Below, piece after piece: positions 28,537-63,447 of a stretch of DNA of 64,000 nucleotides; the first letter of the stretch is position 1, and each line of letters opens with the position of its first letter. The stretch spans positions 2,502,174-2,566,173 of the forward strand of contig OZ241878.1 of the NCBI GenBank assembly GCA_965203365.1, read 5' to 3'. Made by a program: the position numbers and the translations under genes. The stretch is from Candidatus Poriferihabitaceae bacterium (lineage in GTDB: Bacteria > Pseudomonadota > Gammaproteobacteria > Arenicellales > Poriferihabitantaceae). Below the pieces are notes generated by a model, which saw only the letters and a list, made by a program, of their open reading frames with translations, was not told where the DNA came from and ran no database searches.

Positions 28537-29874
28537 TCAGAGTGGTCGGACGAAGCTGAGTTCGGCGCGGTTGCGTTCGAAGTCGAGGGCCTGGGCGTTG
28601 GTGTGGCGTTCCTCGCGGATGAGCGACAGGCGCGGGCTGAAGCCGCGCAGGGTCAGGGCGCGATTGTGGACCGAGAAGGTGAAGGTCCGCGTCTCGTCCC
28701 GGCGGGACTTTCGGTCGATGGTGTGATGGGCGGCGCCGCTTCCCTGATAGTCGGTACGCTCCAAGGCGGTGCGCAGGCCCAGCGTGAAGCCCTTCGGCAA
28801 CGCCAGCGTGGCGCCAAGGCTCACCTGCGGACCCCGGCTACGCCAGTGTTCCACCTTTGCCCGACTCCAGTTCCACCCCACATTCCCGCCCAGGCGCAGC
28901 GTGGGCCGCGCGATCCAACTGGCCCCGAGCGAGATCTCCCCCTCTGGACCATCCAGATGGCCGCAGCCGCGGCAGTTGCGCCGGGCAGCGCTGGTTTGGG
29001 CGGATATCGACAGCCTTGGCGTCAGGCGACGATCCGCCTCCAGCCGCAGGCCGAAGCGATCGGTTTCGGGCCGCCCGGCGGTCCATTGCCGGTCCACGGT
29101 CGCCAGCAGGCTGGCTTCGGAGCGGGCATCGATCAGCCAGCGTGGGCCCAGGTGCAGGGCCAAGGATTGCCGGTCGAACTCCCGACCCCGGTATTCCCGG
29201 AGGCTGGCATTCGCGCCGATGCGCAGCCGCCGGTGGTCCGTCAGTGGGTGCTGGTATTCGCCCCCGCCCCAGAGGGACAGGCCGAGGCCGGATTCAGGCT
29301 TCGCCGGATCGTCCAGGGTGAAGGGCAGCCGCCCGAAGTCCGTGTCAAGGAAGATCGTGCGCTCTCCCGAGGCCGCATTGAGGTTGCTGTCCGGGGCGAT
29401 GGCCGCGCCGAACCAGGCCTCCCACCGCCGCCGCTGCCGCATGACCTGGAGAAAGCGTCGTAAATTGGCCACCACCGCCGGCGGCAGGTCTCCGGCCAGC
29501 ACTTGCTCGAAATGCCGTTTCGCCCGCCTGTCCTCCTCCTTCAGGAAGAAGGCGTACGCCAGTTCGAGGCGCACCCGCACCAGTTCCGGCTGATTCACCA
29601 GGATGGCCCGGAAGGCCGCGATGGCCTCGTCGAGTTTCCCGTCCCGGGTTGCCCGATCCGATGCGGCCCGGGCGGCCTGGAGTGCCGCCATCCCGGCCTC
29701 GAAACGCTGGCCAGTCAGGGCCTCGTCCGAGAGGGCCGTTGCTTCCGTCTTTCCCGTCGGGGTAGCGGGGTCGGCACCGAAGGCGGACGAGGGAGTCCCG
29801 CCGACGGTCACCAGCAGTCCGGCCAGCGGGATCAGCAGGGCCCGGAAAGCGGGGCCGACAGGAAATCGCATCAT
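28537..29874 (-). CDS. Slam (surface lipoprotein assembly modulator, DUF560) outer-membrane protein
   Basis: Signal peptide, then a TPR-like region, then the hallmark LPPAVVANLRRFLQVMRQRRRWEAWFGAAIAPDSNLNAAS, then an alternating beta-strand C-terminal domain ending FERNRAELSFVRPL. ATG chosen at 29872-29874; the ORF track begins at a TTG. Confidence 0.8.
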   Translation of the reverse strand: MMRFPVGPAFRALLIPLAGLLVTVGGTPSSAFGADPATPTGKTEATALSDEALTGQRFEAGMAALQAARAASDRATRDGKLDEAIAAFRAILVNQPELVRVRLELAYAFFLKEEDRRAKRHFEQVLAGDLPPAVVANLRRFLQVMRQRRRWEAWFGAAIAPDSNLNAASGERTIFLDTDFGRLPFTLDDPAKPESGLGLSLWGGGEYQHPLTDHRRLRIGANASLREYRGREFDRQSLALHLGPRWLIDARSEASLLATVDRQWTAGRPETDRFGLRLEADRRLTPRLSISAQTSAARRNCRGCGHLDGPEGEISLGASWIARPTLRLGGNVGWNWSRAKVEHWRSRGPQVSLGATLALPKGFTLGLRTALERTDYQGSGAAHHTIDRKSRRDETRTFTFSVHNRALTLRGFSPRLSLIREERHTNAQALDFERNRAELSFVRPL

Positions 29875-30001
29875 GGCGTCAGGGGGCAATCGGAAAAAAA
29901 GGGGGGAACCGGGAGAAGATCCAGAATCGGGAAGGGGGGTGCCGGAAGTGCTCCCAGGGTCAGGCCGGGAACCGGGGCGGATTCCCGCCTGAACGGGTCG
30001 G

Positions 30002-31746: not shown

Positions 31747-31775
31747 ACTATAAAACGAGGGGGGGGGTGGGTCAA
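31747..31775 (-). promoter_or_regulatory. Putative gamma promoter with a C9 tract in the spacer
   Basis: On the minus strand: TTGACC (31770-31775), a 17-nt spacer (ca, C9, tcgttt), then TATAGT (31747-31752). Confidence 0.5.
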
Positions 31776-33440: not shown

Positions 33441-33444
33441 CGAA

Positions 33445-35094: not shown

Positions 35095-35104
35095 GAGCAG
35101 CCAT

Positions 35105-35458
35105 CGAACGGACCGGGGTGTGAAGCTCGAACTACGGGCCGGTTTCGTCGGTCTCGTCCCGCCCGCCGACCGGCCGACGGACACGCCACCCCTGCGGCTG
35201 CTTGCCGTGCGGGTGCGGGAACCCGAGCCGCCGGCCGGGAAGGAATCGCTCGACTGGCTGCTGCTGACGACCGAGGGTGAACCCCCCGCCGGGAACGCAC
35301 TGCGCGTCGCCGGGTGGTACGAGAAGCGGTGGCTGATCGAGGAATGGTTCCGCGCCCTGAAGACCGGCACGCGGATCAAGGACCGTCGGCTCAATGCCGC
35401 CGACAGCCTGTGCTGCTGCCTCGCCTTCGACGCGATCACGGCCTGCACCGTGATGTCG
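35105..35458 (+). mobile_element. Tn5-like IS4 transposase fragment (C-terminal catalytic region)
   Basis: LDWLLLTTEGEPPAGNALRVAGWYEKRWLIEEWFRALKTGTRIKDRRL compares with Tn5 LKWLLLTSEPVESLAQALRVIDIYTHRWRIEEFHKAWKTGAGAERQRM. Confidence 0.7.
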
Positions 35459-35510
35459 AAGGACAGGAAAGTCAACAACCCCGGAGCTTCCGCTCGACAG
35501 CCAGCACCAC

Positions 35511-35554
35511 CTCGTACAGCCTCGCCGAGGGTCGCATCGGCGAGGCTGTACGAG
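35511..35554. other. 18-bp perfect-stem hairpin in the alpha 3' flank
   Basis: ctcgtacagcctcgccga-gggtcgca-tcggcgaggctgtacgag. Confidence 0.6.
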
Positions 35555-35653
35555 AAAAGGGGGAACGCCCGGCCTGGAAAGGAGAAGCCAACCGGCCCGG
35601 GCGCCCGATCAGGGGTCAGGGAACGGCACCACCTGCCCCCCTCCGTTTGATGG

Positions 35654-37466: not shown

Positions 37467-39224
37467 ATGAACAAACACAATGTCTTAATGGCGGTCTTGC
37501 TGGCCGCTGGGTTGGCCTTGGCGGGCTGCGGGGGCGGCAGCAGCGATCCGGTGACGCCCCCGGATAACGAGATGACCCCGAAGGAGCTTGCTGACGCGGC
37601 GACCACGGCCCTCAATGAGGCGGAGACGGCTGTCGGCATGGTGACGGACACGGCCGATGACGCCAAGGTCACCGCCGCCGACGCGAAGGTGGCGGCCGCC
37701 AAGGCGGCCGTCGACAAGGTGCCTGCCGCGCAGCGGGCCGCCCTCAGCCAGCGGCTCGGGAACCTCGAGGGCAAGCTTGGGGGAAAGACGGCGTCCCGCA
37801 CGGCCGCCATGGCGATGAAGGCGAAGGCCATGGTTGCCCGCGGCAAGGCGCTGCTCGGGGCGATGACGAAGCCCGATGGTGACGACAAGACGGTGCTGGA
37901 CAATCTCGAGAGCGATCCTGTCTACAACGACCTCCTCGTCGATGATGCGACGTACGATGACGGTGCCCGCAAGGCCGTCCGGGCGAAAAACTACCTGGAC
38001 CGGCCTCGGGGAGACTTCCGGATTGATCCTGCGGCGGGTGCGGGGTCGCGAGCGACGTCGGATCTGCATGGTGCGGTGAGCTTCCGGCACGGCACGGAGG
38101 AGGCCAGGGACGCCGAGGAGAAGGTGGACGGCGTGTGGACGGTCACGGACTACGTGAGGACCCAGGGCTCTGGCGAAGGGAAGTTCACCGACAAGGTCAA
38201 GGTGTACAGCGACCGGACGGGGCCGAACTCCATTCCGGCCGCGAAATGGTTCTCTGATTCGGGTGCCAAGGCCTCCTACACGGCCAACGCGGGGACCTAC
38301 ACCCCGGCGGAACGCAGGATATCCCTGAACACCGGGACCGACCACAGCATCGACTCCCCCGATTTCCCGGAGACGGGCACCAAGCCCTTCGCTCCGACAG
38401 ACGGAGCCGATGAGGTCCAGGTCCGGGGCTCCTACCGGGGGGCGCCCGGCTACTACTACTGCACCCCCGGCACCAGTGAATCCTGCACGGTCGGGGTCAG
38501 GCAAATCGGCTACTTCCTGAGCGCCGGCTGGACGTTCGTCCATGACGAGGGGGCCATGGTGATCCACCCCGATACTGACTTTGCGTACTTCGGCTGGTGG
38601 TTGAGAGAGGACGACGACGGCCTGCCCGCGGCGGTCGCCCCCTTCTACGCCACCAGAGGCGGCGGCGTCGGGATCACCTCGGACGGCAACAGCCTGATCG
38701 GCGGCGAGGCGACCTTCGAGGGTCCCGCAGTCGGCCAGTATGCCATCCACGACCCGCTCGACGGCAAGGGCGAGGGCGGCGCGTTCACGGCGACGGCCCT
38801 GCTGAAGGCCAAGTTCGGAGCCAGCAACTTGGTGCCCGACACGGGCATGACCGGCACGGTCGACAAGTTCCGCCTGGAAAACGGGTCCGAGCCGAACTGG
38901 AGCGTGACGCTGAACAGGGGTGGCCCTGGCAGCACCCCTGCTTCGGATAATCGAGGCGGATGGAGGGCTGGCGCCAAGACGGACCCCGCCGCCAAGACGG
39001 TCTGGTCGATCGATGGCAACAAGGCGCTGGCGGCCGGCAGCTGGGTTGCCACGATGTATGATGAAACGCCCGGTTTGCCCACGGTTGCCAGTGGCGGTAT
39101 CACCAAACCGGTCGGCGACGGCAACAACAATCCGACCCTGGTGCTCGGAAAGTTCCATGCCGAATACGGCGGCACCCACCGACTGGTCGGCGCCTTCGGC
39201 GCGAAGAGGGTTGTTGAAGAGTAG
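37467..39224 (+). CDS. Surface lipoprotein beta1 (TbpB/fHbp-like, intact)
   Basis: 585 aa with the same signal and lipobox as alpha1. YFGWWLRED motif and barrel signature GEATFEGPAVGQYA...GAFTATALLKAKFG...GTVDKF...WSV...GKFH...LVGAFGA. Confidence 0.85.
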   Translation: MNKHNVLMAVLLAAGLALAGCGGGSSDPVTPPDNEMTPKELADAATTALNEAETAVGMVTDTADDAKVTAADAKVAAAKAAVDKVPAAQRAALSQRLGNLEGKLGGKTASRTAAMAMKAKAMVARGKALLGAMTKPDGDDKTVLDNLESDPVYNDLLVDDATYDDGARKAVRAKNYLDRPRGDFRIDPAAGAGSRATSDLHGAVSFRHGTEEARDAEEKVDGVWTVTDYVRTQGSGEGKFTDKVKVYSDRTGPNSIPAAKWFSDSGAKASYTANAGTYTPAERRISLNTGTDHSIDSPDFPETGTKPFAPTDGADEVQVRGSYRGAPGYYYCTPGTSESCTVGVRQIGYFLSAGWTFVHDEGAMVIHPDTDFAYFGWWLREDDDGLPAAVAPFYATRGGGVGITSDGNSLIGGEATFEGPAVGQYAIHDPLDGKGEGGAFTATALLKAKFGASNLVPDTGMTGTVDKFRLENGSEPNWSVTLNRGGPGSTPASDNRGGWRAGAKTDPAAKTVWSIDGNKALAAGSWVATMYDETPGLPTVASGGITKPVGDGNNNPTLVLGKFHAEYGGTHRLVGAFGAKRVVEE

Positions 39225-39810: not shown

Positions 39811-39881
39811 CTTCGACGCCGCCGGCACACCCCATCGGCCGAGCGCGTGGCGCCAGTCGGTGCGCTCGCACAAACAAACAA

Positions 39882-40665
39882 AGACGGAGCCTCGGAGGTC
39901 AAGGTGCGGGGCACCTACCAGGGGGCGCCCGGCTACTATTACTGCAAGACCGACTGCCAAGTCCAGGTGAGAAGAGGCGGCATCAGCCTGTATGCCGGCT
40001 GGAGGTTCGTCCACGACCCGGACGCCCAGGTGTCCCTCCCTGATTCCGACTACCTGTATTTCGGCTGGTGGGTGAGATCGAACAGCAGCGACGACGTGCC
40101 CAGACTGGCCACCGCCTTTTTCGGCTTCGAGGGCGTCACTCTGGAGGAAGGCAAAACTACGAGCGCCCGCGATTACGACGGCTCCGCGACCTTCGAGGGC
40201 CCCGCGGTCGGCCAGTACGCCATCCACGACCCGCGCAACGGCGAGGGCGAGGGCGGCGCATTCGAGGCGAAGGCCACGCTGAAGGCCCGGTTCGGGGACC
40301 CCAACAATGTGCGCGATGCGGGCCTGTCCGGCACGATCGACGAGTTTCGGCTGAACGGCGGGTCCGAGGATCCGGGCTGGAGCGTGCAGTTGGTGAAAAG
40401 CCGCTTTGAGAGTGCCGGAAAAAAGGTCACCAGAAGAGGCACCAAGACGGTCATGTCGATCGGCGACTTCAAGGGGCCGGAGGTTCTCAACAGCTGGGAC
40501 GCCCGGTTGTTTGACACCACGCCCGGAACCGTTGCGGACGGCGGCGACGGCTCCAACGAGGCGGACAAGATCCTCGGAACCTTCTACTCCGAATACAGCA
40601 CCACCCATCGGCTGGTCGGCGCGTTCGGCGCGAGCAACATCACGAAACAGAACGTCAACGAATAG
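39882..40665 (+). pseudogene. SLP alpha4 (3' cassette fragment, mirror of the alpha3 C-terminal 260 aa)
   Basis: Starts at ...DGASEVKVRGTYQGAPGYYYCKTDC, fused to IS-derived sequence. Confidence 0.8.
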
Positions 40666-40860
40666 CCATCAAACGGAGGGGGGCAGGTGGTGCCGTTCCC
40701 TGACCCCTGATCGGGCGCCCGGGCCGGTTGGCTTCTCCTTTCCAGGCCGGGCGTTCCCCCTTTTCTCGTACAGCCTCGCCGATGCGACCCTCGGCGAGGC
40801 TGTACGAGGTGGTGCTGGCTGTCGAGCGGAAGCTCCGGGGTTGTTGACTTTCCTGTCCTT

Positions 40861-41214
40861 CGACATCACGGTGCAGGCCGTGATCGCGTCGAAGGCGAGG
40901 CAGCAGCACAGGCTGTCGGCGGCATTGAGCCGACGGTCCTTGATCCGCGTGCCGGTCTTCAGGGCGCGGAACCATTCCTCGATCAGCCACCGCTTCTCGT
41001 ACCACCCGGCGACGCGCAGTGCGTTCCCGGCGGGGGGTTCACCCTCGGTCGTCAGCAGCAGCCAGTCGAGCGATTCCTTCCCGGCCGGCGGCTCGGGTTC
41101 CCGCACCCGCACGGCAAGCAGCCGCAGGGGTGGCGTGTCCGTCGGCCGGTCGGCGGGCGGGACGAGACCGACGAAACCGGCCCGTAGTTCGAGCTTCACA
41201 CCCCGGTCCGTTCG
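40861..41214 (-). mobile_element. Tn5-like IS4 transposase fragment (mirror copy)
   Basis: Translation identical to 35105-35458. Confidence 0.7.
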
Positions 41215-41224
41215 ATGGCTGCTC

Positions 41225-42552
41225 CTACTCTTCAACAACCCTCTTCGCGCCGAAGGCGCCGACCAGTCGGTGGGTGCCGCCGTATTCGGCATGGAACTTT
41301 CCGAGCACCAGGGTCGGATTGTTGTTGCCGTCGCCGACCGGTTTGGTGATACCGCCACTGGCAACCGTGGGCAAATCGGGCGTTTCATCATACATCGTGG
41401 CAACCCAGCTGCCGGCCGCCAGCGCCTTGTTGCCATCGATCGACCAGACCGTCTTGGCGGCGGGGTCCGTCTTGGCGCCAGCCCTCCATCCGCCTCGATT
41501 ATCCGAAGCAGGGGTGCTGCCAGGGCCACCCCTGTTCAGCGTCACGCTCCAGTTCGGCTCGGACCCGTTTTCCAGGCGGAACTTGTCGACCGTGCCGGTC
41601 ATGCCCGTGTCGGGCACCAAGTTGCTGGCTCCGAACTTGGCCTTCAGCAGGGCCGTCGCCGTGAACGCGCCGCCCTCGCCCTTGCCGTCGAGCGGGTCGT
41701 GGATGGCATACTGGCCGACTGCGGGACCCTCGAAGGTCGCCTCGCCGCCGATCAGGCTGTTGCCGTCCGAGGTGATCCCGACGCCGCCGCCTCTGGTGGC
41801 GTAGAAGGGGGCGACCGCCGCGGGCAGGCCGTCGTCGTCCTCTCTCAACCACCAGCCGAAGTACGCAAAGTCAGTATCGGGGTGGATCACCATGGCCCCC
41901 TCGTCATGGACGAACGTCCAGCCGGCGCTCAGGAAGTAGCCGATTTGCCCGACCCCGACCGTGCAGGATTCACTGGTGCCGGGGGTGCAGTAGTAGTAGC
42001 CGGGCGCCCCCCGGTAGGAGCCCCGGACCTGGACCTCATCGGCTCCGTCTGTCGGAGCGAAGGGCTTGGTGCCCGTCTCCGGGAAATCGGGGGAGTCGAT
42101 GCTGTGGTCGGTCCCGGTGTTCAGGGATATCCTGCGTTCCGCCGGGGTGTAGGTCCCCGCGTTGGCCGTGTAGGAGGCCTTGGCACCCGAATCAGAGAAC
42201 CATTTCGCGGCCGGAATGGAGTTCGGCCCCGTCCGGTCGCTGTACACCTTGACCTTGTCGGTGAACTTCCCTTCGCCAGAGCCCTGGGTCCTCACGTAGT
42301 CCGTGACCGTCCACACGCCGTCCACCTTCTCCTCGGCGTCCCTGGCCTCCTCCGTGCCGTGCCGGAAGCTCACCGCACCATGCAGATCCGACGTCGCTCG
42401 CGACCCCGCACCCGCCGCAGGATCAATCCGGAAGTCTCCCCGAGGCCGGTCCAGGTAGTTTTTCGCCCGGACGGCCTTGCGGGCACCGTCATCGTACGTC
42501 GCATCATCGACGAGGAGGTCGTTGTAGACAGGATCGCTCTCGAGATTGTCCA
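41225..42552 (-). pseudogene. SLP beta3 (5'-truncated cassette)
   Basis: Identical to beta2 from DNLESDPVYNDLL to the stop. The 5' end is cut by an IS30-like end at 42552/42553. Confidence 0.8.
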
Positions 42553-42935
42553 CAGAAGCGCCACGCTCGCCGCGCTCCCCGAATAAAGGAAGCGCGGCGG
42601 CGACCGGAAAATTCGGCCCTAAAGGGGCTAGTGTCGGTCATCAATGGTATCCTTCTCGACGCTAGGGCCCGCTCGGGCCGTGTCAAACGGGTTTTGGCCG
42701 AGCAGGACCCGGCCCGTCGAACACGGGCTGGCGGAAGGGGGAAGATGGGGGAGGAATGACCGCCTTCAGGGCGGGACGGCAGCGGTGAAGACCTCTTCCG
42801 GGGTCCGATACCCCAGCACCTTGCGGGACCGGCATCACCTGACGGAATTCCGTTCCCTTCGGGAAGGACTGACGCACCAGACCGTTGGTGTACTCGTTCA
42901 GACCCCGTTCCCAAGAGTGGTCCGGGGTCTATCAA
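42553..42935 (-). mobile_element. IS30-family 3' fragment (transposase C-terminus plus end)
   Basis: TPDHSWERGLNEYTNGLVRQSFPKGTEF...RTPEEVFTAAVPP*, followed by the ~215-bp end sequence. Confidence 0.7.
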
Positions 42936-48574: not shown

Positions 48575-49453
48575 TCAGGCGATCACCCCCGCCTGTCGCA
48601 TCGCCGCGGCCACGGTGTCCTGGCAGGAGTCCGACAACCAAGTCAAGGGCAGGCGGATGCCCTTCGGGATCCATCCCATTTGATGCAAAGCCCATTTCGA
48701 GGGGATGGGGTTCGACTCGATGAACAAGCTGCGATGCAGTCCGTCCAACTCCTCGTTCAGCCGGTCGGCCGTGTCATGGTCTCCTGCCAGGGCGGCCCGA
48801 CACATCGCCCGCATTTTGGCCGGAGCGACATTGGCGGTGACCGAAATACACCCATGCCCGCCCGCTTTCATGAACGCCAGGGAACTGACGTCCTCACCGG
48901 AATAGAGCCGGAAATCCGCGGGACATCGGGCCAGAAAATCCGCCACTCTCGGAATATCCGAAGTCGCGTCCTTGATCCCCACGATATTGTCGATTTCCGC
49001 CAGCCGAACCACGGTATCATTATGCATGTCCAAGGCGGTTCTGCCGGGGACATTGTAGAGGATCTGCGGCACCCCGACCTGCTCGGCAATATGTCGAAAG
49101 TGACGATAGAGTCCTTCCTGGGTGGGCTTGTTGTAATACGGCACCACCAGCAAACACCCGAGAATGTCGAGTTCGGCCGCACTTTTCGTCAACTCCAAGG
49201 CTTCATGAGTGGAGTTCCCACCGGTTCCCGCAATCACCGGAATCCGACCGCGGGCATACTCGACCGTCCGGGCGATGACCTCGATTTGTTCGGGAATATC
49301 CAAGGTGGCGGATTCTCCCGTGGTGCCGACCGAGACGATCCCATCGGTGCCGCTGTCGATATGGAATTCCACCAGTTTCTTCAGGCTGTTGAAATCCACC
49401 CCTCCCTCTTCGAACATGGGGGTGACCAAGGCGACCAGACTGCCGGTAATCAT
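48575..49453 (-). CDS. dapA: 4-hydroxy-tetrahydrodipicolinate synthase
   Basis: MITGSLVALVTPMFEEGGVDF...VSVGTTGESATL...YNKPTQEGLYRHF aligns by eye with E. coli DapA. An alternative start lies at 49459. Confidence 0.95.
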   Translation of the reverse strand: MITGSLVALVTPMFEEGGVDFNSLKKLVEFHIDSGTDGIVSVGTTGESATLDIPEQIEVIARTVEYARGRIPVIAGTGGNSTHEALELTKSAAELDILGCLLVVPYYNKPTQEGLYRHFRHIAEQVGVPQILYNVPGRTALDMHNDTVVRLAEIDNIVGIKDATSDIPRVADFLARCPADFRLYSGEDVSSLAFMKAGGHGCISVTANVAPAKMRAMCRAALAGDHDTADRLNEELDGLHRSLFIESNPIPSKWALHQMGWIPKGIRLPLTWLSDSCQDTVAAAMRQAGVIA

Positions 49454-49597
49454 TGCCATGTGACCAATTTCGCGATTCATGAAACAGATAGAGATGGCGT
49501 GGATGGTATCGCCTGACCGAGAATCAAGCAAGAGGCGCCGCTTGCAAGACCCCGCCTTCGAGGGGATTGTTCCCCAAAACAGATGATTTTTCTGCCG

Positions 49598-49942
49598 GAG
49601 GAGGTGGGCGGGCCCATTTACGGCGGGTGGCTCAAGACATCCGGGAACGACGGTGCCTTGACCGCGAGCGCGTTCTATGGCGAGCGGGTCAGGGGGTCGT
49701 CGGGCGTCAGTCGTGCAAACCCCTTCCGTACGTTGAGGGGACAGGCGACCTACGAGGACGGGGCAGCCAGCCTTTACACGCTCCACCGCCCCGTCGGCGC
49801 AAGGAACGAGGCCGGCCCGTTCGCCGCGGACACCATGGTTGAAGCGAACTTCGATAGCCTGACAATCAAGGGGATCCCCAGCCACTTCAGGACCGGCGCC
49901 CTCGGGGAGCGTCGTAAAGTCAGCGGGATGAGCGGGCGTTAA
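49598..49942 (+). pseudogene. SLP fragment (delta'-like C-lobe piece)
   Basis: YGGWLKTSGNDGALTASAFYGER...GQATYEDGAASLYTLH...GPFAADTMVEANFDSLTIKG..HFRTGALG compares with delta' YGWWLKKSGDGPWTASAFYGER...ATYEGGSAGLYALH...FVADAMLEANFDTQKIKG.LSNFRTGALG. Confidence 0.7.
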
Positions 49943-49945
49943 CCA

Positions 49946-50567
49946 TTAAACCAGCCAAATCATGGCCCTGGCCAAGTCCCCCATCGACCCATTCTTTTGC
50001 TTCCACCCCTCATCACGAGTCGCCAGGCGACGACAGGGCTTCCGCTGCTGAAACCGGCGTTCCACCCCATAGCGCACTGGGTCAATTGCCCGATCATCGT
50101 CTCGGGGCGCTTGACGATGACGGCGCGGCGGAATCACGGCCGTCGCCCCCGAATGCCCCATCCATTCCCTCCGTGGATGACGGTCATCCCCTGGACCGGC
50201 GATCCCATCATCGGCTTCGACCTCCCCGACCCGGCTCGGGGCCTGACCCGACTCCGAGGCTTGTCCAGGCGTGACCCACCGCGGGATCGGGAGCCCCCCT
50301 GCCTCGACGGAGGCCGGGATGTTCGGGCCCCACGCCCCTCGAGAGCGGCCGACCGCTTCGGTGGCCTGATCGTTTTTTGGGGGGAGCCCCAGGCGGATGG
50401 ACGCGCGTCATTGAGCCGATCAATCATGAGCGATTCAAAGTCCGCCTCGACCGACCGGACCGGTCAAATCTGCGGCCACTGCCCTTTTGAGGACCCGCGG
50501 AGGGGTTGCCGGACATCCCGGGCTGGATGCGTTCCCCCGGGTCCTCTCTGAGTCTGAACCGGGTCAT
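49946..50567 (-). pseudogene. IS5-family transposase remnant (internal deletion and frameshifts)
   Basis: N-terminus MTRFRL.ED..ERIQP. Middle ADFESLMID. C-terminus AVIPPRRHRQAPRDDDRAIDPVRYGVERRFQQRKPCRRLATRDE matches the IPP..NR...R.YD...Y..R..VE..F..LK.FRR.ATRY.K pattern. Confidence 0.65.
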
Positions 50568-51395
50568 GGCGATTGCTGATGACCGCCCCTTGGTTGACCG
50601 AGTCGACTCGAAATGACTTCAATGGGTAACGCCCCCGAGATACTGTCGTCATAAGACAGGCCGAATGGGGCAGCCTTCACGGAAGAAATGCTCCGGGTTG
50701 ACTGCTGCCAGGACCGACTCTCACCGTCGACCCGATGGGTCGGCCCCCGTCTGGTCCCAGTCGGCCCCCAGCGGCCGGGTCGAAAAGGCCGGGGTGCGCG
50801 GTGGCCTGTGACCCCCGGCGGTTTCCTGAGACGGGCTCCTCGATTCGGCAGACCGGGACGCCGGGACTATCCCCTCATCCCCCTGAACAGACCCAGCTTC
50901 CCCCCCCTGATTGGCCTCCTCGTTCCCCTCGTTTCGTCAGTCGGCTTCTCCTCAGTCAGTCACCGGCACTGGGAACCCAGGTCATCCCCGATCACCTCCC
51001 CCTGTCCGCCGCTGCCGGCCTGGCCAGAACTGCTGCATCCCGGGCATCAGCGGGCGTTTCGTCGAACACCCCCCCGCCCGACCAGGGGTCCACTCCCCCC
51101 AGGCCCGATGCCTCCAGTCCCGAACCCGAAACACCAGGATGGCCTCGAACACCAGACACGGGCACTGATCAGGGATCCGGGCCACCCGGCCGGATCATTC
51201 CCCAGACCGGAATGGCTCTTCCCAAGACCGGAATGGCTCTTCCCAAGATGACCGGAGGCCGCTGATGGGCGCCGCCGCGTCCTGGGGCCGGCGATGGGAG
51301 GACGGGGCTCTGCCTGCGTGGCAGGTCCCCCCCCCAGCGGGTCGCCCCGGCGAACGCCGCGAGGCCCCGCATCGCCCTCCGGATACGCTCCATTC

Positions 51396-51758
51396 CTAGA
51401 GCAACTTGACCAGCGCGACGATCAGTCCTCCCTGGGCGATCAGTGCGCTGAACATCCATTTCAGCAGATCCGCCTTGACCTGCGCCATATCGGCCTTGGT
51501 CCCCTGTCGCAAGGCTTCGATATCGGCCTTGGTCTCCTGTCGCAAGGCTTCGATATCAGCCTTCGTGGCCTGTTTCAGTGCCTCGATATCGGCCTTGGTC
51601 CCCTGTCGCAAGGCTTCGATATCGACCTTCGTGGCCAAATTGGTATTGAGCAGGGCGACCTGCTCCTCAGCCAGCGTTTCCGCCTGCAGCTCAGTAAAGC
51701 CGCTGCCCGTCAAACGCTTGACAAAGCGGTGCGTATCAAATGCGATGGCCTCGGTCAT
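51396..51758 (-). CDS. DUF1640-like coiled-coil, C-terminally anchored protein (short allele)
   Basis: MTEAIAFDTHRFVKRLTGSGFTELQAETLAEEQVALL..., about 4.6 units of an 11-aa repeat, then TM segment LLKWMFSALIAQGGLIVALV. Confidence 0.75.
   Translation of the reverse strand: MTEAIAFDTHRFVKRLTGSGFTELQAETLAEEQVALLNTNLATKVDIEALRQGTKADIEALKQATKADIEALRQETKADIEALRQGTKADMAQVKADLLKWMFSALIAQGGLIVALVKLL
51487..51640. repeat. 33-bp in-frame tandem repeat (~4.6 units)
   Basis: Unit atatcggccttggtc.cctgtcgcaaggcttcg encodes (T)KADIEALRQ(E/G). Confidence 0.85.
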
Positions 51759-52074
51759 GAGGGAAATTATAGACCATCCGCTCCGGCCCAACAAGCCTCG
51801 GCCAAGTCGTCTCCCGGCCGGTCCGTCGCGACCCGGTCGACCGTCATTCGCCCCATCCCGGGGCTGTCATTGACCCCCACCTGACAAATGGTCAGGGAGG
51901 GGGATCCCGGAGCCGGGGTTTCATGGCCGGGTACATGACCGTGGAGTGCCTCAGCAACCCCATGGCCTGCCAGAGTTTCGCCGCGCCGGGCAGCGGCGGG
52001 CGTTGGGAGGGATGAACCCCGATCCGCCGGGCGAGGTCGACCACGCCGGTCGCCAAGGAGAGGGGGTTATCCGG

Positions 52075-52272
52075 TGGGTCAGGGTGGGGGGGGCTGTGGG
52101 CGCATTGTGGCAAAATCGGGTCAGCAGGGACCCCAAGGGGGATGGTCTCGGCCGGTCATCGGGAAATTCGATCAGATTCTCTTGTTTTATAGAGATTGCC
52201 TATTGTTTTGCTGGGGGAACTGGCGACGGACCGAGCCGGGTCGCCCGAAAAAGAGGCGTTTTCTGCCAGACA
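52075..52272 (+). repeat. 198-bp IS-end-like repeat R2 (copy b)
   Basis: Inverted copy of 31878-32075. Abuts the stop codon of the second DUF1640 gene. Confidence 0.7.
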
Positions 52273-55681: not shown

Positions 55682-56659
55682 CTATTGCCGATAAGCTTCC
55701 AGGATCATCTGGCCAGCCTCGCCGGCTCGAGCAACCCATTCTTCTGTCATGGTGTGGCCGATTGCCCTGAAGCTGTCCATCAGCCCGCCCCCCGGCATGA
55801 CGATGATCATGCCGTTGTCTTCCATTTCGGTGATCTTCTCATCGGCTTCCCTCATGCTGGCCGCCCAGCCGCGCTCCTCGGCCCGGCGTGCCGCGGCCAG
55901 CACGGCTTCCCGGACCTCGGGCCCAAGCCCCCCGAAGGCCGCCTGATTGACCACCACCATGTTTTTCGGGAGCCAGGCCCGGGTATGATGAAAATGGGAC
56001 ACATAGTCCCACGCCTTGGTGTTCGCCCCCGTCGAGGGCGAGGTGATCATGGCCTCGACCCGCCCGCTGGCGAAAGCGACCGGTATATCCGGCACCTCCA
56101 CCTGCGTCGGAAGCGCCCCGGCGAGTTCGGCGACCCGCTCCGTGCTGGTGTTGTACGCCCGGAACTTCATGCCAGCCAGATCCTCAATCGTACGGATTTC
56201 CTTGCCCGCATAGATGCCCTGGGGCGGCCATGGAACCGCATACAACAACAACAGGCCCTGCTTCTCGAGTCTGGCCTTCAGTACCGGATAGCTGGCCTTC
56301 CAGAGTTTCCGAGCCTGACCATAATCAGTGGCAAGAAAGGGCACGGAATCGATCTCGAATACCGCGTCCTCGTTTCCAAGCCGAGACATGAGCACCTCGC
56401 CGAGGGGGACGAGGCCGTTCCTGACCGAACTCTTGATCTGGGGATGCTTGATCAGGGAACCGCCGCTGTGCACGGTGATCGTCAATGCGCCGCCTGTCGC
56501 CTTGTTCACATCCTCGGCAAAGGCGCTGACATTGACGGTGTGAAAGGTGCCGTCACCATACGGGGTGGGCATATCCCAGGTTTCCCTTGCCGCAACCCCC
56601 TGACCCAAACCCAGGCAGACCATCGCCAGCAGGCATCTTGTTGCCAATTTGGTCGTCAC
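55682..56659 (-). CDS. dctP: TRAP transporter substrate-binding protein (DctP family)
   Basis: Signal peptide MTTKLATRCLLAMVCLGLGQGVAA. DctP-like body of 325 aa. Confidence 0.9.
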   Translation of the reverse strand: MTTKLATRCLLAMVCLGLGQGVAARETWDMPTPYGDGTFHTVNVSAFAEDVNKATGGALTITVHSGGSLIKHPQIKSSVRNGLVPLGEVLMSRLGNEDAVFEIDSVPFLATDYGQARKLWKASYPVLKARLEKQGLLLLYAVPWPPQGIYAGKEIRTIEDLAGMKFRAYNTSTERVAELAGALPTQVEVPDIPVAFASGRVEAMITSPSTGANTKAWDYVSHFHHTRAWLPKNMVVVNQAAFGGLGPEVREAVLAAARRAEERGWAASMREADEKITEMEDNGMIIVMPGGGLMDSFRAIGHTMTEEWVARAGEAGQMILEAYRQ

Positions 56660-56948
56660 TCTCTTTCACCAAGGTGTTTGTGGAACGGCGCGGCCCGGTC
56701 AGGGCCAACCCGCCAGGACAGGAATGAGGATAACACATCGATCAGCGCAATCAACAAATCAGCCAGGGTCTGACAGGACGATTCTATTGTCGGACAACGG
56801 GTGATGTGGGCGTGTTCAGGCGACCATTGGAGAAAGCGTTTCGTTGTCTGCGTACCCGTTTGGGCCACGTGGAGCTGCCATCGACTGCATCGAAGGCAGC
56901 CACGCACTGGTTCCCGACATTGATTCGAGAAAACAATGGTCCTGAGGC

Positions 56949-56972
56949 TTGACAGGAGGGGGGGGGTACAGT
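56949..56972 (+). promoter_or_regulatory. Putative delta promoter with a G9 tract in the spacer
   Basis: TTGACA (56949-56954), gga plus G9 (56958-56966) giving a 12-nt spacer, then TACAGT (56967-56972). Confidence 0.45.
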
Positions 56973-57134
56973 TGCCGGTCAGTCTGCCCGAACGGTTGAA
57001 CGCAGGGCGGCTGATCAAGCGATGCAATGCAGGTTGGTGTTTGGGTTCGGCCAGGGGGTGCACCCCCTGGCCGGGTTCCCGGGCAGCCGGACCGGCAGGG
57101 CCTCGGAATACCAAATCTGCAACGTGAACTGAAC

Positions 57135-58781
57135 ATGAACAAACACAATGTCTTAATGGCGGTCTTGCTGGCCGCTGGGTTGGCCTTGGCGGGCTGCGGG
57201 GGCGGCAGCGGTCCGGCGACGGCCCCGAACGACGGCGAGATGACACCCGAGATGACCCCGGCGCAACTTGCTGACGCGGCGGACAAGGACCTCAAGGCGG
57301 CGGAGACGGCTGTCGGCAGGGTGACGGACACGGCCGATGACGCCAGGGTCACCGACGCCGATACGAAGGTGAAGGCGGCCAAGGCGGCCGTCAACCAGGT
57401 GCCTGCCGCGCAGCGGGCCGACCTCAGCGAGCGGCTCGGGAAGCTTGAGGCGAGGCTTGACGCCGCGAAGGTGTCCCGCACGGCCGCCCTGGAGAAAAAG
57501 AGGATGGCCGAGGCCGCGGCGATGAAGGAGACGGCGGGCAAGCTGTATGCCGGCATTGCCGCGAGAAATTTTGGTGGCAGTAATAGTGTAGGGCGGCGGG
57601 GTGCGTACTTTGATGATCAGAATCTCAAGGTGCAGATTGACGGGAATGAGGTTACCCTGAAAAAAGACAAGGAGGCGATGGTCCCGGCGATCAAGGACTG
57701 GGTGGGAGAGAAGTACACCCTGACCGAAGGTGTCGATACCTACGAGGCCTATATTTACGGCGATATGGCGGAAGGCAGTTTGAAGACGCTCAAGGAAAAG
57801 CATGACGAATATGACGAAACCACCGGCGTGTTGCCCTGGGCAGAAGTCCTGAGAAGCTCTGGCTCCCGCATTGGACGCACTGGTTTCGGCATCACAGCCG
57901 GGTACAAGACTTACCCGCCAGATAATCCCGGCGGCACCGAGGTGACGATCAAGGGCACCTACCTCGGCGTACCCGGCACCTACCGGTGCGTGCCGAATAA
58001 AGGTTATCGGTGCGCAGCGTATCTGTACGTCGAAAACAATGATGATAAGGAAACCATCGTTCTTACCGGACAGCAGATCGAAAATGAAGGGTACCGGAAC
58101 GATAACGTGACTTGGACGTTCAAGGCGGACGACCCGAAGGCCAAGGTCAGGCAGGCGGACGCGGTCGGCTGGTCCATGTACGGCTGGTGGATCAAGAAGT
58201 CCAGTGACACTGGTACCTTGACCGCAAGCGCGTTCTATGACATCAGGAGCGGGAGTGTGACGGGAGTCGACAGGACAAATGTACCCCAGCAGATACACGG
58301 CGATGCGACCTATGAGGGTGGGGCCGCTGGCCTGTACGCACTCTACAGCAACCCCAGCAGTGGGCACGACGCCGGCCAGTTCGTTGCAGACGCCCGGTTT
58401 GAAGCGAACTTCGATACCGACAAGGTCAGTGGTGTCATCAACAACTTCAGGACAGGCAACCTCGGGACGTCACCGGAAAGGCCGCGGGACTGGTCCGTCG
58501 AACTGATGCCGGTGAATATTAAGAATAACAATACCAGCGTGAGTAGTAGTACGCCTAATGCAGGCGCCCATGGCGAGACCGAAAAGACCAAATGGACCAT
58601 CGGCGGAACCGCTGCAGCAGCCTCCGGCAACTGGTTCGGAGGGTTCAGTCAGAAGGATAATGGCATCGGCAAGAGCGTAATCCCGCAGACGGTAATCGGG
58701 AACTTCTACTCCGAATACGGCCGGGTGGGCAAGATCGTCGGCGGCTTCGGGGCGAATCTGAAGACGCAGACGGAGGAGTAG
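57135..58781 (+). CDS. Surface lipoprotein delta (TbpB/fHbp-like, intact)
   Basis: The first 75 nt are identical to alpha1/beta1 (MNKHNVLMAVLLAAGLALAG|CGGGS). YGWWIKK motif and barrel signature GDATYEGGAAGLYA...FVADARFEANF...GVINNF...WSV...GNFYSEYG..GKIVGGFGA. Confidence 0.85.
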   Translation: MNKHNVLMAVLLAAGLALAGCGGGSGPATAPNDGEMTPEMTPAQLADAADKDLKAAETAVGRVTDTADDARVTDADTKVKAAKAAVNQVPAAQRADLSERLGKLEARLDAAKVSRTAALEKKRMAEAAAMKETAGKLYAGIAARNFGGSNSVGRRGAYFDDQNLKVQIDGNEVTLKKDKEAMVPAIKDWVGEKYTLTEGVDTYEAYIYGDMAEGSLKTLKEKHDEYDETTGVLPWAEVLRSSGSRIGRTGFGITAGYKTYPPDNPGGTEVTIKGTYLGVPGTYRCVPNKGYRCAAYLYVENNDDKETIVLTGQQIENEGYRNDNVTWTFKADDPKAKVRQADAVGWSMYGWWIKKSSDTGTLTASAFYDIRSGSVTGVDRTNVPQQIHGDATYEGGAAGLYALYSNPSSGHDAGQFVADARFEANFDTDKVSGVINNFRTGNLGTSPERPRDWSVELMPVNIKNNNTSVSSSTPNAGAHGETEKTKWTIGGTAAAASGNWFGGFSQKDNGIGKSVIPQTVIGNFYSEYGRVGKIVGGFGANLKTQTEE

Positions 58782-59439
58782 CACCGCCCGCAGAATAGCG
58801 CCTCGCCACGGCGCCGTCTCGCCCGCCAGCGTCGGTCCTAAACCTCAATGGTGACCTGGCGGGTGCCTTCGGCGGCACGCGGGGGCAGATCCTCATAAGC
58901 GCAGGACGATTCTTTGTCCGGCCGGTCATGATCGGGCCAGCAATTTCCGCCAAGGAAATCCCCCCGTGGATTCGGCGGGATTTTCGGGTGCAGAGGCATG
59001 ATGCCCCGTATTCGGGGGGCGCGAGCCATCCGTTCATCTGGCCAGGGCCAATGGGCCTTGGGGGCGGTGTGGTTTCGGGTCGTGTTGAACCGTGAACCGT
59101 TTGCGTCGGGCCGGGGGGACCCGAAGAAGAGCCCCCTCGGGGTCGCTGACATCCCATGAGATTGCATCCAGCTGCTCCGGGGTGATATCCGGCTTGAGGA
59201 GTGCACTGCGCCCGGGTGGGGCCGGCGTTTCGCGTGGGGGGCGTGATGTTCCGGGCAGCGTCGTCGGCCAGAAGGGATGACCGGATTAAGGAGTACAGAC
59301 GGCCCGTCCCTTCACGACCGGAACGCTCCCCGCGTAGCGGAAGTCATTTTTTCCCTGAAAAGTCTTGATTCCGGATTGAAATTTCGGGGGGGTAGGTAGA
59401 ATGAATCCTGCTGATGCAAGACCCGCACCGCCCCCCGGA

Positions 59440-60013
59440 TCTGTCATTCACACCCACCTGACAAATGGTCAGGGAGAGGGATCCCGGAGCCGGGGTTTCA
59501 TGGCTTGGTACATACGTGGAGTGCCTCAGCAACCCCATGGCCTGCTAGAGTTTCGCCGCGCCGGGCATTGGCTGGCGTTGGGAGGGATGAAACCCGACCC
59601 GCCGGGCGAGGTCGACCACGCAGGTCGCCAATCGGGTCGAGCAGGGGTTGTTCCGCCCCGCCGAACGGCGGCAGCGGGCCCTGGCCATTCAGGCCGTCAT
59701 CGCCTGGCGCCATCCTGGTGATGATCCTGCTCCGGCCGTCCAATACCCAACTGTGAACCCCAGTGGATGTTCACTGACGTCGAGTTGACCTTCTGGCAGG
59801 AGGATGCCGAACAGGTCTGACTGAATGGACCCCACCCATTGGGGGATGCGGTGCCATGGGGTGCGCATCTGGGGGGGTACCGGGGTCGCCGGCAGGATCC
59901 GGATCCCGGCCATCAGATCAGGTGGCCTGGGCAGACCCGACTGACCAGTGCCACTCTGGGGCATGAGATCGGCCAGGGCAAGGGCTATGCCAGGGGATTC
60001 GAAGCCGGTCAAC
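59440..60013 (-). mobile_element. Unclassified IS-like remnant (multiple stops and frameshifts)
   Basis: Contains the 101-bp repeat (59913-60013) and the junction module ...VVDLARRVGFHPSQRQPMPGAAKL*QAMGLL. Family not recognised. Confidence 0.4.
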
Positions 60014-60221
60014 AAGCGGCCTTAAGGTTACTCCGCCCTCCGACACCCAAGGACGCGGCTTCCCCCAAACCATGACCCCCTGACGGGGGGGATCCGGCGG
60101 AATCTCCGCCGGGCTGGCCCCTGACATCGGGGTCCCAGCGGGTCAACAGGGCGTCACACAGTCGATGATGAATTGCCAGCGTCATCCATGATTTGTGTAT
60201 GCTCGGTAGCCTGCGGCGGCG

Positions 60222-61838
60222 CTACTCCTCCGTCTTCAGGTTCGCCCCGAAGCCACCGACCATCTTGCCCACACCGCCGTACTCGGTATAGAAGTTCCCG
60301 GTCATCACCTTCGGGCGCAAGGTCCCGCCGCGACCGCTATCCTGCTGGGTGAATTTTCCGGTCCAGTTGCCAGAGGCATCCGCAGCGGTCCCGCCGATGG
60401 TCCACTTGGTCCTTTCGGTCGCTTTCCAGTCGCCTATGTTTTCCGTGGTCGAGTTCTTGATCTCCGCCGACATCAGTTCGACCGACCAGTCCCGCTGGCT
60501 TTCCGGCGACGTCCCGAGGGCGCCGGTCCGGAAGTTGCTGAGGGTCCCCTTGATCTTCTGGGTATCGAAGTTCGCTTCAAGCATGGCGTCTGCAACGAAC
60601 TGGCCGGCGTCGTTGGTTCCGCCGGTAGGGCTGTGCAGCGCGTACAGGCCGGCGGACCCGCCCTCATACGTCGCCTTTCCCTTCACCAAATCGCCATTTG
60701 CAGTACCGACAGTTATGTCATTTAGTGACGGCCGCTCGCCATAGAACGCACTCGCGGTCCAGGGGCCGTCCCCGGACTTCTTGAGCCACCAGCCGTACAT
60801 CGACCAGGCAGTATAGTCTATCTGCATTATCTTGGCCTTCGGATCATCGGCCTTGAACGTCCAGTCCGCCAGGGTGTTCGCGTAATTGTTTTCGTCCTCC
60901 CCGAGAAGGTCGACGCCTTCCTCACCCTCTGAGTTGATGGACAATCGCGCGGCGCACTTGTGGTCGGCGGCGGTGGGCGTGCACCGGAAGGTGCCGGGGA
61001 TGCCGTAGTAGGTGCCCTTGATCGTCACCTCGGTGCCACCACCCAGTTCGTATACCTTGTACCCGCTCGTGATGCCAAAGCCAGCGCGTCCGATCCCATT
61101 TCCGTTGGAATACAGGGCAGCCTTGTCCAATACCCCGGTCGTATCGTCATACTCGTTGCCGTGCTTGTCCTCAAGCGTCTGGAACTCGCCTTCCGAAACA
61201 TCGCCGTAGACATAGGCCTCGTAGGTATCCCGACCGTCGGTCAAGGTGTACTTCTCTCCCCTCCAGCCCTTGATGGCCGGGACCATCGCCTCCTTGTCCG
61301 TCTTCAGTTCCTTCACGACCTTCTCGATCTGCACCCTGAGCACCTGGCTGGCAAAGATCGCATTCCGCCGGCCCGTGAATTCACTGGTGCGACCCCCGGT
61401 GCGCCTGAAAATGCCGTGATACAGCTTGCCCGCCGTCTCCTTCATCGCCGCGGCATCGGCCATCCTCTTTTTCTCCAGGGCGGCCGTGCGGGACACCTTC
61501 GCGGCGTCAAGCCTCGCCTGAAGCCTCCCGAGCCGCTCGTTGAGGTCGAGGTCGGCCCGCTGCGCGGCAGGCACCTTGTCGACGGCCGCCGCGGCCGCCT
61601 TCACCTTCGCCTCGGCGTCGGTGACCTTGGCGACATCGGCCGTGTCCGTCACCATGCCGACAGCCGTCTCCGCCGCCTTGAGGTCCTTGTCCGCCGCGTC
61701 AGCAAGTTGCGCCGGGGTCATCTCGGGTGTCATCTCGCCGTCGTTCGGGGCCGTCGCCGGACCGCTGCCGCCCCCGCAGCCCGCCAAGGCCAACCCAGCG
61801 GCCAGCAAGACCGCCATTAAGACATTGTGTTTGTTCAT
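60222..61838 (-). CDS. Surface lipoprotein delta' (TbpB/fHbp-like, intact)
   Basis: Same signal and lipobox; roughly 65% identical to delta by eye after residue ~60. YGWWLKK motif and barrel signature GKATYEGGSAGLYA...GNFYTEYGGVGKMVGGFGA. Confidence 0.85.
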   Translation of the reverse strand: MNKHNVLMAVLLAAGLALAGCGGGSGPATAPNDGEMTPEMTPAQLADAADKDLKAAETAVGMVTDTADVAKVTDAEAKVKAAAAAVDKVPAAQRADLDLNERLGRLQARLDAAKVSRTAALEKKRMADAAAMKETAGKLYHGIFRRTGGRTSEFTGRRNAIFASQVLRVQIEKVVKELKTDKEAMVPAIKGWRGEKYTLTDGRDTYEAYVYGDVSEGEFQTLEDKHGNEYDDTTGVLDKAALYSNGNGIGRAGFGITSGYKVYELGGGTEVTIKGTYYGIPGTFRCTPTAADHKCAARLSINSEGEEGVDLLGEDENNYANTLADWTFKADDPKAKIMQIDYTAWSMYGWWLKKSGDGPWTASAFYGERPSLNDITVGTANGDLVKGKATYEGGSAGLYALHSPTGGTNDAGQFVADAMLEANFDTQKIKGTLSNFRTGALGTSPESQRDWSVELMSAEIKNSTTENIGDWKATERTKWTIGGTAADASGNWTGKFTQQDSGRGGTLRPKVMTGNFYTEYGGVGKMVGGFGANLKTEE

Positions 61839-62000
61839 GTTCAGTTCACGTTGCAGATTTGGTATTCCGAGGCCCTGCCGGTCCGGCTGCCCGGGAACCC
61901 GGCCAAGGTGTGCACACCCTGGCCGAACCCAAACACCAACCTGCATTGCATCGCTTGATCAGCCGCCCTGCGCTCAAACGTTCGGGCAGACTGACCGGCA

Positions 62001-62035
62001 ACTGTACCCCCCCCCCCCCCCCCCCCTCCTGTCAA
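62001..62035 (-). promoter_or_regulatory. Putative delta' promoter with a G20 tract in the spacer
   Basis: On the minus strand: TTGACA (62030-62035), gga plus G20 (C-run 62007-62026) giving a 23-nt spacer, then TACAGT (62001-62006). Confidence 0.45.
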
Positions 62036-62224
62036 GCCTCAGGACCATTCTGCAGCCATTCCCGCCAAGGACATCCCCCGGTGGATTCGGCGGGATGTCC
62101 TGGCGCCCCCGCCCGCAGGGGAAATCTGCGGACAGGACGGCCCCGCCAGCGGGCGGCCGGATCGACGATAGGCCCTGGGTTTCCTGAAGCACCGGCCGAT
62201 CCCCCACTCGGTCACGGCATCAAG

Positions 62225-62630
62225 TCAGGCCGGGTCGAAGGGCTCCCCATCAGGCGGGCGGTGCCCGAACACGATGGCTTGGGACCCCGTCTCCCCGTCC
62301 GGGAGGGGGAACCCCCCGAACCCGCCGCGCCACGGTCTCCCCCCGCGGGGGGGACGACCCGACTTCACCCGGGCGGCCTGGCACAGCGCACCGCACCGCT
62401 GCGGCACCGGATCGATGAGGAATGCCCGCCTCGTCCGATGGGCGAACCCCGCCGCCAGATGTTGCTTGCCGTGACCGAAGGGGTGGTACCAAGCCATCCC
62501 CTGGGTTCTTCAGGGGGTTGAAGGGTTCGTTCTCAATCCGCCAGCGGGCGGTCGGGATGGCGTCCTCGGACAGCCAGTCGGCGGCGGACTTTTCGGGCGT
62601 ATCCCGAGCGGCGCGTTGCAGATCGAACAC
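62225..62630 (-). mobile_element. DDE transposase C-terminal remnant (RWRIENE...FGHGKQHL type), frameshifted
   Basis: ARWRIENEPFNPLKNPG, then in another frame YHPFGHGKQHLAAGFA...AFLID. Confidence 0.55.
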
Positions 62631-63064: not shown

Positions 63065-63200
63065 GTGCGAGCGGGACGAGCCCGTTGGCGCATCGAGAAC
63101 GAGACCATCAAACCCCTGAAGAACCCATGGGATGGCATGGATTTCGGGGCATTGAGCCACCGCCATGGACATACGGCGTCAGCCCCGGACTGGCTGGCCA
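63065..63200 (+). mobile_element. Second remnant of the same transposase type (inverted)
   Basis: ARWRIENETIKPLKNPWDGMDFG. Confidence 0.45.
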
Positions 63201-63447
63201 ACTGGCAAAGTGCGTTCCCGTCAAGCGTACGTAGAAGATCAAGGGCGTGGGGGGCGGCATTAGCGTCGATCAAACAAAGAACCGGCGGGGCCCGCATCAG
63301 ATGATATGGGTCATACCCTGCTTCAAACCCAGTCCAGAATTGTGCCAGACAAATCAGGCCATCATGCCCTTGTCGTACCCAATCAAAGTTCGGTACTCTG
63401 TTCCCTCCCCCACCAAGACCCGCAGGCGACCTGCGCGAACCCGCTTG

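Follow-up and report, generated by a model that had tools for sequence, protein, structure and literature searches.

Host-adapted pathogens such as Neisseria, Bordetella, and Mycoplasma are well known for homopolymer tracts in their promoter spacers, and sigma-70 promoters have their spacer optimum at 17 ± 1 nt. In the Bordetella fim promoters, the activator BvgA takes the place of a normal −35 element, and hpuA is phase-variable via a poly-G tract. The porA promoter of Neisseria meningitidis has a poly-G tract between its two hexamers (−35 and −10), and expression is high with 11 G, two-fold less with 10 G, and thirteen-fold less with 9 G (PMC3639595). Mycoplasma hyorhinis carries a poly-A tract in the promoter of every vlp lipoprotein gene (PMC10502178), and the C-stretches of the Bordetella fim promoters measure 10–18 nt, reaching up to C19 (PMC1891110). 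Outside the promoter spacer, copy-number-variable heptamer repeats are transcribed in the 5′UTR of the Haemophilus influenzae adhesin gene hmw1A (PMC12721329).

The window analysed here, a 64-kb stretch of DNA with 64% G+C, contains a tract of the promoter-spacer type upstream of delta′ (60222..61838, minus strand), an intact gene for a 538-aa lipoprotein with the signal MNKHNVLMAVLLAAGLALAGC. On the gene strand, the delta′ element reads TTGACA-GGA-G20-TACAGT from 62035 to 62001 (TTGACAGGA-G20-TACAGT). It is composed of the −35 hexamer TTGACA, which matches the consensus at 6/6 positions (62030..62035, minus strand), the trinucleotide GGA as the fixed part of the spacer between TTGACA and the tract (62027-62029, minus strand), the G20 homopolymer as the variable part (62007..62026, minus strand; C20 on the plus strand), and the −10 hexamer TACAGT, in which T1, A2, and T6 are present (62001..62006, minus strand), 23 nt away from the −35 hexamer. 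A preliminary description had placed a C20 run at 62007-62026 of the plus strand, flanked by TTGACA and TACAGT on the gene strand; the coordinates proved exact, and the tract does lie between a perfect −35 and a good −10 hexamer. The flanks given there were imprecise in one detail: actgta directly abuts the C-run on the plus strand (62001-62006), but tgtcaa, at 62030-62035, is split from it by tcc. G20 is the sole mononucleotide run longer than 9 nt in the 64 kb, in which G/C runs of 5, 6, 7, 8, and 9 nt were counted 190, 57, 23, 2, and 3 times, respectively, a drop of about three-fold per extra base. Extrapolation of this decay gives a chance expectation of ~1e-5 or fewer for runs of at least 20 nt, arguing that G20 is no chance event.

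The element is located 162 nt upstream of the ATG of delta′. A consensus scan of the region 56600-62600 revealed no alternative sigma-70 promoter with a 16–18-nt spacer, and the sister gene delta, described below, has no co-directional gene on its upstream side, dctPQM being divergent; TTGACA/TACAGT is therefore the sole recognizable promoter. From the consensus matches alone, we infer that TTGACA-Gn-TACAGT is the promoter really used. Two other interpretations of the same DNA were considered and rejected. The sigma-54 pattern GG-N10-GC fits any poly-G tract that precedes TACAGTTGC, the matches here are confined to the GG and TTGC positions, and a third paralog of the family lacks the motif. 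An upstream ORF of 64 codons, TTG-initiated, runs from the −35 TTG through the tract; its frame varies with tract length and its start lies inside the −35 hexamer. Searches with the exact flanks TTGACAGGAGGGG..GGGTACAGT and a variable gap gave 0 matches in public genome-contig and metagenome-contig collections, and the DNA of the signal peptide gave 0 matches in the public metagenome-contig collection. Just one contig is recorded as encoding the exact delta′ protein, and a further two paralogs (P0004 and P0005) are recorded from it as well. The large single-chain PurL encoded in the window hints, with low weight, at a gamma- or beta-proteobacterium.

The same element was found with G9 (56958-56966) upstream of delta, an intact gene for a protein of 548 aa (57135..58781, plus strand). 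This copy, TTGACA-GGA-G9-TACAGT (TTGACAGGA-G9-TACAGT), occupies 56949..56972 of the plus strand. The two genes form an inverted pair, tail to tail, with the promoter element of delta, like that of delta′, exactly 162 nt before the ATG. The spacer between the hexamers equals n + 3 nt, which is 23 nt at G20 and 12 nt at G9, and both tracts are of the length seen in contingency loci of the porA type (a homopolymer of ~8 nt or more). The preliminary description had further regarded the G20 tract as lying in a copy of the delta promoter and as having changed length since the two promoters diverged; both statements hold, with 20 versus 9 G between identical immediate flanks. Identity is 100% over the 32 nt comprising the −35 hexamer, GGA, and the first 9 G's (56935-66 / 62018-49) and 97% over the next 471 nt, and the leaders of the two genes differ at 5 positions. 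Homology begins just 14 nt 5′ of TTGACA (56935 / 62049), with unrelated sequences beyond, indicating that the duplicated unit consisted of promoter, leader, and gene.

Within this unit, the identity profile is mosaic: mostly 94–100% from the promoter through the leader to ~400 nt into the coding sequence (~57530), falling to 82–88% in a diverged patch at ~57340-57430, and mostly 50–90% over the remainder of the gene (68% mean). Over the whole protein, delta and delta′ are 66% identical by tblastn and 68% identical in a MAFFT alignment. The first 135 codons (57135-57540 versus 61838-61430) show 0 synonymous and 13 nonsynonymous differences, a pattern that points either to gene conversion in patches, with other paralogs as donors, or to diversifying selection; these 13 differences cluster around 57340-57430. 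For the rest of the gene, dS was 0.53, with a dN/dS of 0.60 in the diverged part. The length polymorphism, seen between two paralogous copies of one genome with the flanks kept, amounts to 11 nt and is accompanied by near-zero substitutions nearby, indicating that the tract changed much faster than point substitutions accumulate. An 11-nt change amid almost unchanged flanks is what a hypermutable tract would predict. The intact ORFs and the dN/dS of 0.60 argue that delta and delta′ are still used at times.

We consider it probable that the element is a slipped-strand phase-variation switch acting on the promoter spacer, of the kind described for porA, Bordetella fim, and Mycoplasma vlp. Slipped-strand mispairing at replication would alter n, and with it the spacer of n + 3 nt, and RNA polymerase would reach both hexamers only at n of ~13–15, i.e. 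at 16–18 nt, so that the ON state is predicted at G13–G15. Both alleles are predicted to be OFF, delta′ above and delta below the ON range, because their spacers of 23 nt (delta′) and 12 nt (delta) lie outside the 16–18-nt range of sigma-70; the spacer lengths and the predicted OFF states are points that the preliminary description did not contain, and it likewise made no mention of the C9 tract of the third paralog, the fold of the encoded protein, the partial gene copies, or the tandem repeats of relatives, all described below. As long tracts slip often, delta′ would be the more mutable, poised copy, and delta, which would need at least four successive insertions to turn ON from G9, would be nearly locked. 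Since a G20 tract is expected to be highly mutable, the population is probably heterogeneous at delta′, and a fraction of the cells may be ON. A high slippage rate of this particular tract, and an expression level that tracks its length, are both inferred. Under the proposed mechanism, delta, delta′, and the third paralog would be independently switchable expression sites of a variable surface-lipoprotein family.

Three observations weigh against such a switch. Both delta′ and delta are 5–6 steps from the predicted optimum, and a functional switch of the one-step type would be expected more frequently at or beside ON. The sole copy with ON spacing precedes a gene with a premature in-frame stop, and the homopolymer design was seen in this genome only, when set against those of 65 related loci in which the start could be located. 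The closest mechanistic kind appears to be that of N. meningitidis porA, and also fetA and opc, in which a poly-G/poly-C tract likewise lies between the hexamers of an outer-membrane or surface gene and its length sets the spacer (PMC3639595). The porA tracts, of 9–11 G, are one step from the optimum, whereas those described here, of 20 and 9 G, are 5–6 steps off it; moreover, porA encodes a porin, whereas here the product is a lipoprotein of an uncultured, probably sponge-associated proteobacterium.

The third paralog (31594 to 30143, minus strand) has its promoter at the homologous distance, TTGACC-(CA-C9-TCGTTT)-TATAGT at 31747..31775 of the minus strand, where the C9 run corresponds to G9 at 31759-31767 of the plus strand. 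With a 17-nt spacer, this promoter is predicted to be ON. The reading frame has an in-frame stop at codon 484, and homology runs 50 codons further (...SVYSEYGSPHRLVGAFGVKDTNE). Directly downstream follows a gene for a surface lipoprotein assembly modifier (Slam), and for that reason the C9-bearing promoter may mainly drive Slam. Across the window, G/C runs of at least 7 nt were bracketed by promoter-like hexamers (a −35-like hexamer matching at 5/6 positions or better, plus a −10-like hexamer) in 4 out of 29 cases, compared with 0.46% of random positions (~0.13 expected), and 3 of the 4 bracketed runs are upstream of paralogs of this lipoprotein family. A G7 run at 59386-59392, between TTGAAA and TAGAAT with a 15-nt spacer (59375-59401, plus strand), falls within the 1.4 kb that separate delta from delta′, adjoining a repeat also present at ~51880-52070, and no obvious gene lies downstream of it. 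Three G/C runs of 8–9 nt (C8 at 50900, C9 at 51327, and G8 at 52086) occur within 1.2 kb (50900-52093), in an apparently non-coding or degenerate stretch beside two tandem-repeat-rich coiled-coil (CCDC90-like) genes, and these are without flanking promoter hexamers.

The remaining two full-length paralogs (24665 to 22947 and 37467-39224) have AT-rich upstream regions, read as TTGAAG-18-TATAAT, without a tract, so that 3 of ~5 full-length paralogs in the window have tract-bearing promoters. In the logic of a lipoprotein family with per-gene homopolymer promoters, the M. hyorhinis vlp system seems the most similar: there too, variable surface lipoproteins are encoded by a set of related genes, each switched independently of the others through a homopolymer tract in its own promoter (PMC10502178). 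The vlp genes differ in that their tracts are poly-A, in that a tract is not limited to a part of the family as it is here, in their wall-less, Gram-positive-derived host, and in encoding unrelated proteins.

Further copies of the gene are found in a cluster at 21400-42600 and 49439-49981, which contains the three full-length copies at 24665 to 22947, 37467-39224, and 31594 to 30143, and some eight promoterless partial copies (21833-22612, 25328-26854, 27192-27971, 33403-35091, 35657-36907, 39880-40662, 41228-42553, and 49439-49981). Long inverted repeats connect the copies, the longest being a perfect 2671-nt pair (33767-36437 / 39882-42552), and this layout carries a risk of assembly collapse. 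As a whole, the cluster resembles an expression site with silent cassettes. Just outside it is a gene for the conjugal-transfer protein TraU (19843-20883, minus strand); the lipoprotein cluster may border or sit in an integrative conjugative element, which would fit the spread of the family across phyla.

Next, we examined the protein. At the N-terminus of delta and delta′ is a lipobox (SPII) signal peptide, MNKHNVLMAVLLAAGLALAG/C, as expected of Slam-dependent lipoproteins, and the lipobox Cys is invariant or nearly so in the family alignments. Searches of Pfam, NCBIfam, and PDB sequences found nothing beyond signal-peptide noise, and membership in the TbpB_B_D (TbpBBD) Pfam domain was rejected on the same result. 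A confident AlphaFold2 model of delta′ built with 95 homologs (pLDDT 88, pTM 0.76) begins with a helical hairpin, continues with a handle rich in beta structure, and ends in a barrel at the C-terminus. Foldseek comparison of the model with the PDB revealed that the top 22 matches are all Neisseria Slam-dependent lipoproteins (E-values of 1e-5 to 2e-3, with 15/22 at E ≤ 1e-3; probabilities of 0.87–1.0), the best being fHbp, the TbpB C-lobe, the NHBA C-domain, HpuA, and LbpB, with E-values between 1e-5 and 5e-4.

The Slam gene (28537..29889, minus strand; PF04575 at E 1e-20, plus TPR_Slam) is ~27–30 kb from delta and delta′, and through its position directly downstream of a family member it provides an association with a DUF560/SlipAM outer-membrane protein. 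Lipobox, fHbp/TbpB/HpuA-like fold, and a Slam gene in the window are the marks of a surface or host-interaction determinant. By modelled fold and by context, the delta′ protein thus appears to function in the manner of Slam-dependent surface lipoproteins, with the Slam of this window as its probable exporter. It shares with the Neisseria proteins (fHbp, TbpB, LbpB, HpuA, and NHBA) the lipobox, the handle with C-terminal beta-barrel, and the nearby Slam gene, but is without sequence-level similarity to them and has the N-terminal helical hairpin in addition. In hpuA, the poly-G tract lies in the coding region, whereas here it is in the promoter.

To place the family in a wider context, related loci were collected from species-representative genomes with a search built on a 9-sequence alignment. 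The family is large, with 4,179 clusters at 50% identity at E ≤ 1e-3 and 1,205 at E ≤ 1e-30, and is present in no curated library. All 65 related loci come from uncultured metagenome-assembled genomes (MAGs), including Paracoccaceae, Gammaproteobacteria, Chloroflexota, Binatia, Acidobacteriota, Nitrospinota, and others. Many of the isolate or bin names (APA, RHO, IRC, SB06xx, jk18/p16, Candidatus Poriferihabitaceae) are ones that we take to belong to sponge-metagenome series, the titles themselves stating no source. Among those of the 65 loci in which the start could be located, no member had a G/C run of at least 7 nt upstream, and homopolymer promoters as a family-wide feature were ruled out on this basis.

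The closest homologs in other MAGs show, in place of homopolymers, perfect tandem repeats of 13–16 nt between a good promoter and the start codon, in the 5′UTR, with copy numbers that vary between orthologs. The unit (ATCAATCCGGGGCCCC) is repeated 13 times in locus L042 (2319-2528) versus 7 times in its ortholog L050 (2421-2534), and (TCTTCAGCGGGGCC) occurs 5 times in L005 (2405-2480) versus once in L006 (~2575-2600); in L007 (2955-2997), (CTCTTCACGGGGC) is repeated 3 times. These differences in copy number (13 vs 7; 5 vs 1 vs 3) support the view that repeat-driven variability of expression may be a recurrent theme upstream of this lipoprotein family. It is these repeats, rather than G20, that resemble the variable 5′UTR tandem repeats of hmw1A, from which they differ in unit length and sequence, and their function in the sponge symbionts is putative. 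Another related locus, L036, has alternating poly-G and poly-C runs of 14–54 nt around an N gap (4568-4753) in a short-read sponge MAG scaffold; these runs are clearly a sequencing or scaffolding artefact, in contrast to the G20 tract.

Four other explanations of the tract were weighed against the promoter switch. The pair could represent a decayed switch, with delta and delta′ kept as silent, archival donors for recombination and their tracts drifting without selection. Spacers so far outside the functional range would fit this, as would the many promoterless partial copies, the mosaic identity with its suggestion of gene conversion, and a 5′ gene part in which all 13 differences are nonsynonymous; against it, neither ORF is interrupted (538 and 548 codons), the diverged part has a dN/dS of 0.60, both copies keep the −35 and −10 hexamers unchanged, and a silent donor needs neither a consensus promoter nor a lipoprotein signal peptide. 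We therefore regard decay as rather unlikely. Another idea is that G20 initiates recombination, forming a G-quadruplex (G4) on the non-template strand that stimulates gene conversion from silent cassettes. The G4 linked to pilE stimulates gene conversion in Neisseria gonorrhoeae, and under the G3+N1-7 rule runs of at least 15 G can fold into an intramolecular G4, which G9 cannot. G20 is long enough, and promoterless cassettes and mosaic paralogs are at hand, yet the paralog with G9 is equally mosaic, and the position of the tract exactly between −35 and −10 is more simply explained by control of spacing, leaving this explanation highly improbable.

In HiFi/metaMDBG-type data, most residual errors fall in long homopolymers, and a long tract could be real while its length is mis-stated, 20 being a product of consensus calling or polishing, or else the most frequent length in a mixed population, and the true length possibly shorter or even ON. 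The preliminary description had warned of a length error from sequencing or assembly, which is a fair caution. The related genomes are long-read metagenome assemblies with contig names in metaMDBG style, and the gross poly-G artefacts of the separate short-read locus L036 illustrate the hazard. Sponge genome notes of such projects describe PacBio HiFi reads assembled with metaMDBG (PMC13224822). The delta′ tract is nevertheless colinear within a conserved promoter, with unique flanks and away from any contig end or gap; other runs of at least 10 nt are absent from the window and from 445 kb of related loci, bar the L036 scaffold gap; and an error of at least 5 bases would be needed to bring it into the ON range, or of 11 to equal the paralog. 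As an explanation, a mis-stated length is judged unlikely, although the exact number may plausibly be off. The remaining alternative, an activator-dependent promoter of the Bordetella fim type, would make TTGACA an activator site and let the tract set its distance and helical phase, in which case both copies could be active: the step from a 12-nt to a 23-nt spacer, 11 bp, is close to one helical turn and would keep the copies in phase. The fim2, fim3, and fimX genes indeed offer a parallel, with long C/G promoter homopolymers in paralogous genes for surface structures and lengths that differ between paralogs and strains (PMC1891110), and G20 is similar to them in length. However, TTGACA matches the −35 consensus of sigma-70 perfectly, neither an activator site nor a regulator gene was identified here, the 11-bp difference would arise by our estimate about once in ten under random lengths, and the third paralog has ordinary 17-nt spacing; we consider this explanation very unlikely.

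The promoter-spacer switch thus remains the preferred explanation. Its mechanism is already known; it differs from the known systems in its host, in the protein family concerned, in the extreme length of the tract, and in that both copies are far from the predicted optimum. G20 is among the longest promoter-spacer tracts of this kind, and its setting is unusual, an fHbp/TbpB-like lipoprotein gene with many relatives in sponge-symbiont MAGs and with sister promoters bearing G9 and C9. Taken together, the 20-nt tract, the lipoprotein setting, the sister G9 and C9 tracts, and the variable repeats of the relatives suggest that symbionts, too, switch surface lipoproteins stochastically, and the large, uncurated family is a candidate determinant of symbiont–host or symbiont–phage interaction. 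A more far-reaching proposal is that a sponge symbiont couples phase variation with antigenic variation, in a system in which homopolymer promoters would choose the active sites for Slam-exported lipoproteins, the ~8 cassettes would supply sequence by gene conversion, and the G tract would double as a G-quadruplex-type trigger. We consider this combination improbable; if true, a mutualist would be employing a pathogen-style immune-evasion toolkit to control how its animal host, or phages, recognize it.

Between promoter and start codon, delta′ has a 162-nt leader (5′UTR; 61839..62000, minus strand) that is common to the paralogs and contains a conserved hairpin, GGCCAGGGTGTGCACACCTTGGCC (61924 to 61901, minus strand), with compensatory changes between paralogs. 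Comparison across the paralogs showed one compensatory G-C to U-A change plus G-U wobbles, and RNAalifold analysis of 4 leaders found changes on both sides in 10 of 32 predicted pairs. The hairpin is a possible 5′UTR regulatory element, and an Rfam search found no match in the window. The 24-nt palindrome GGCCAGGGGGTGCACCCCCTGGCC that forms it is also present at 57049-57072 (plus strand) and at homologous leader positions of other paralogs.

A REP-like element of 54 nt, itself containing an inverted repeat, is present in two copies, 85% identical, at 58938-58991 and 62053-62106, one just downstream of delta and the other 18 nt upstream of the delta′ −35 hexamer. Farther upstream, ORFs at 62250-62630 (minus strand, 126 aa) and 63065-63304 (plus strand, 79 aa) have a common ..ARWRIENE.. 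motif and are accompanied by a 61-nt inverted repeat (62489-62549 / 63080-63140). The motif may belong to a fragment of an IS-type transposase; should the ORFs be IS remnants, a possible origin of the delta′ copy would be beside mobile-element debris.
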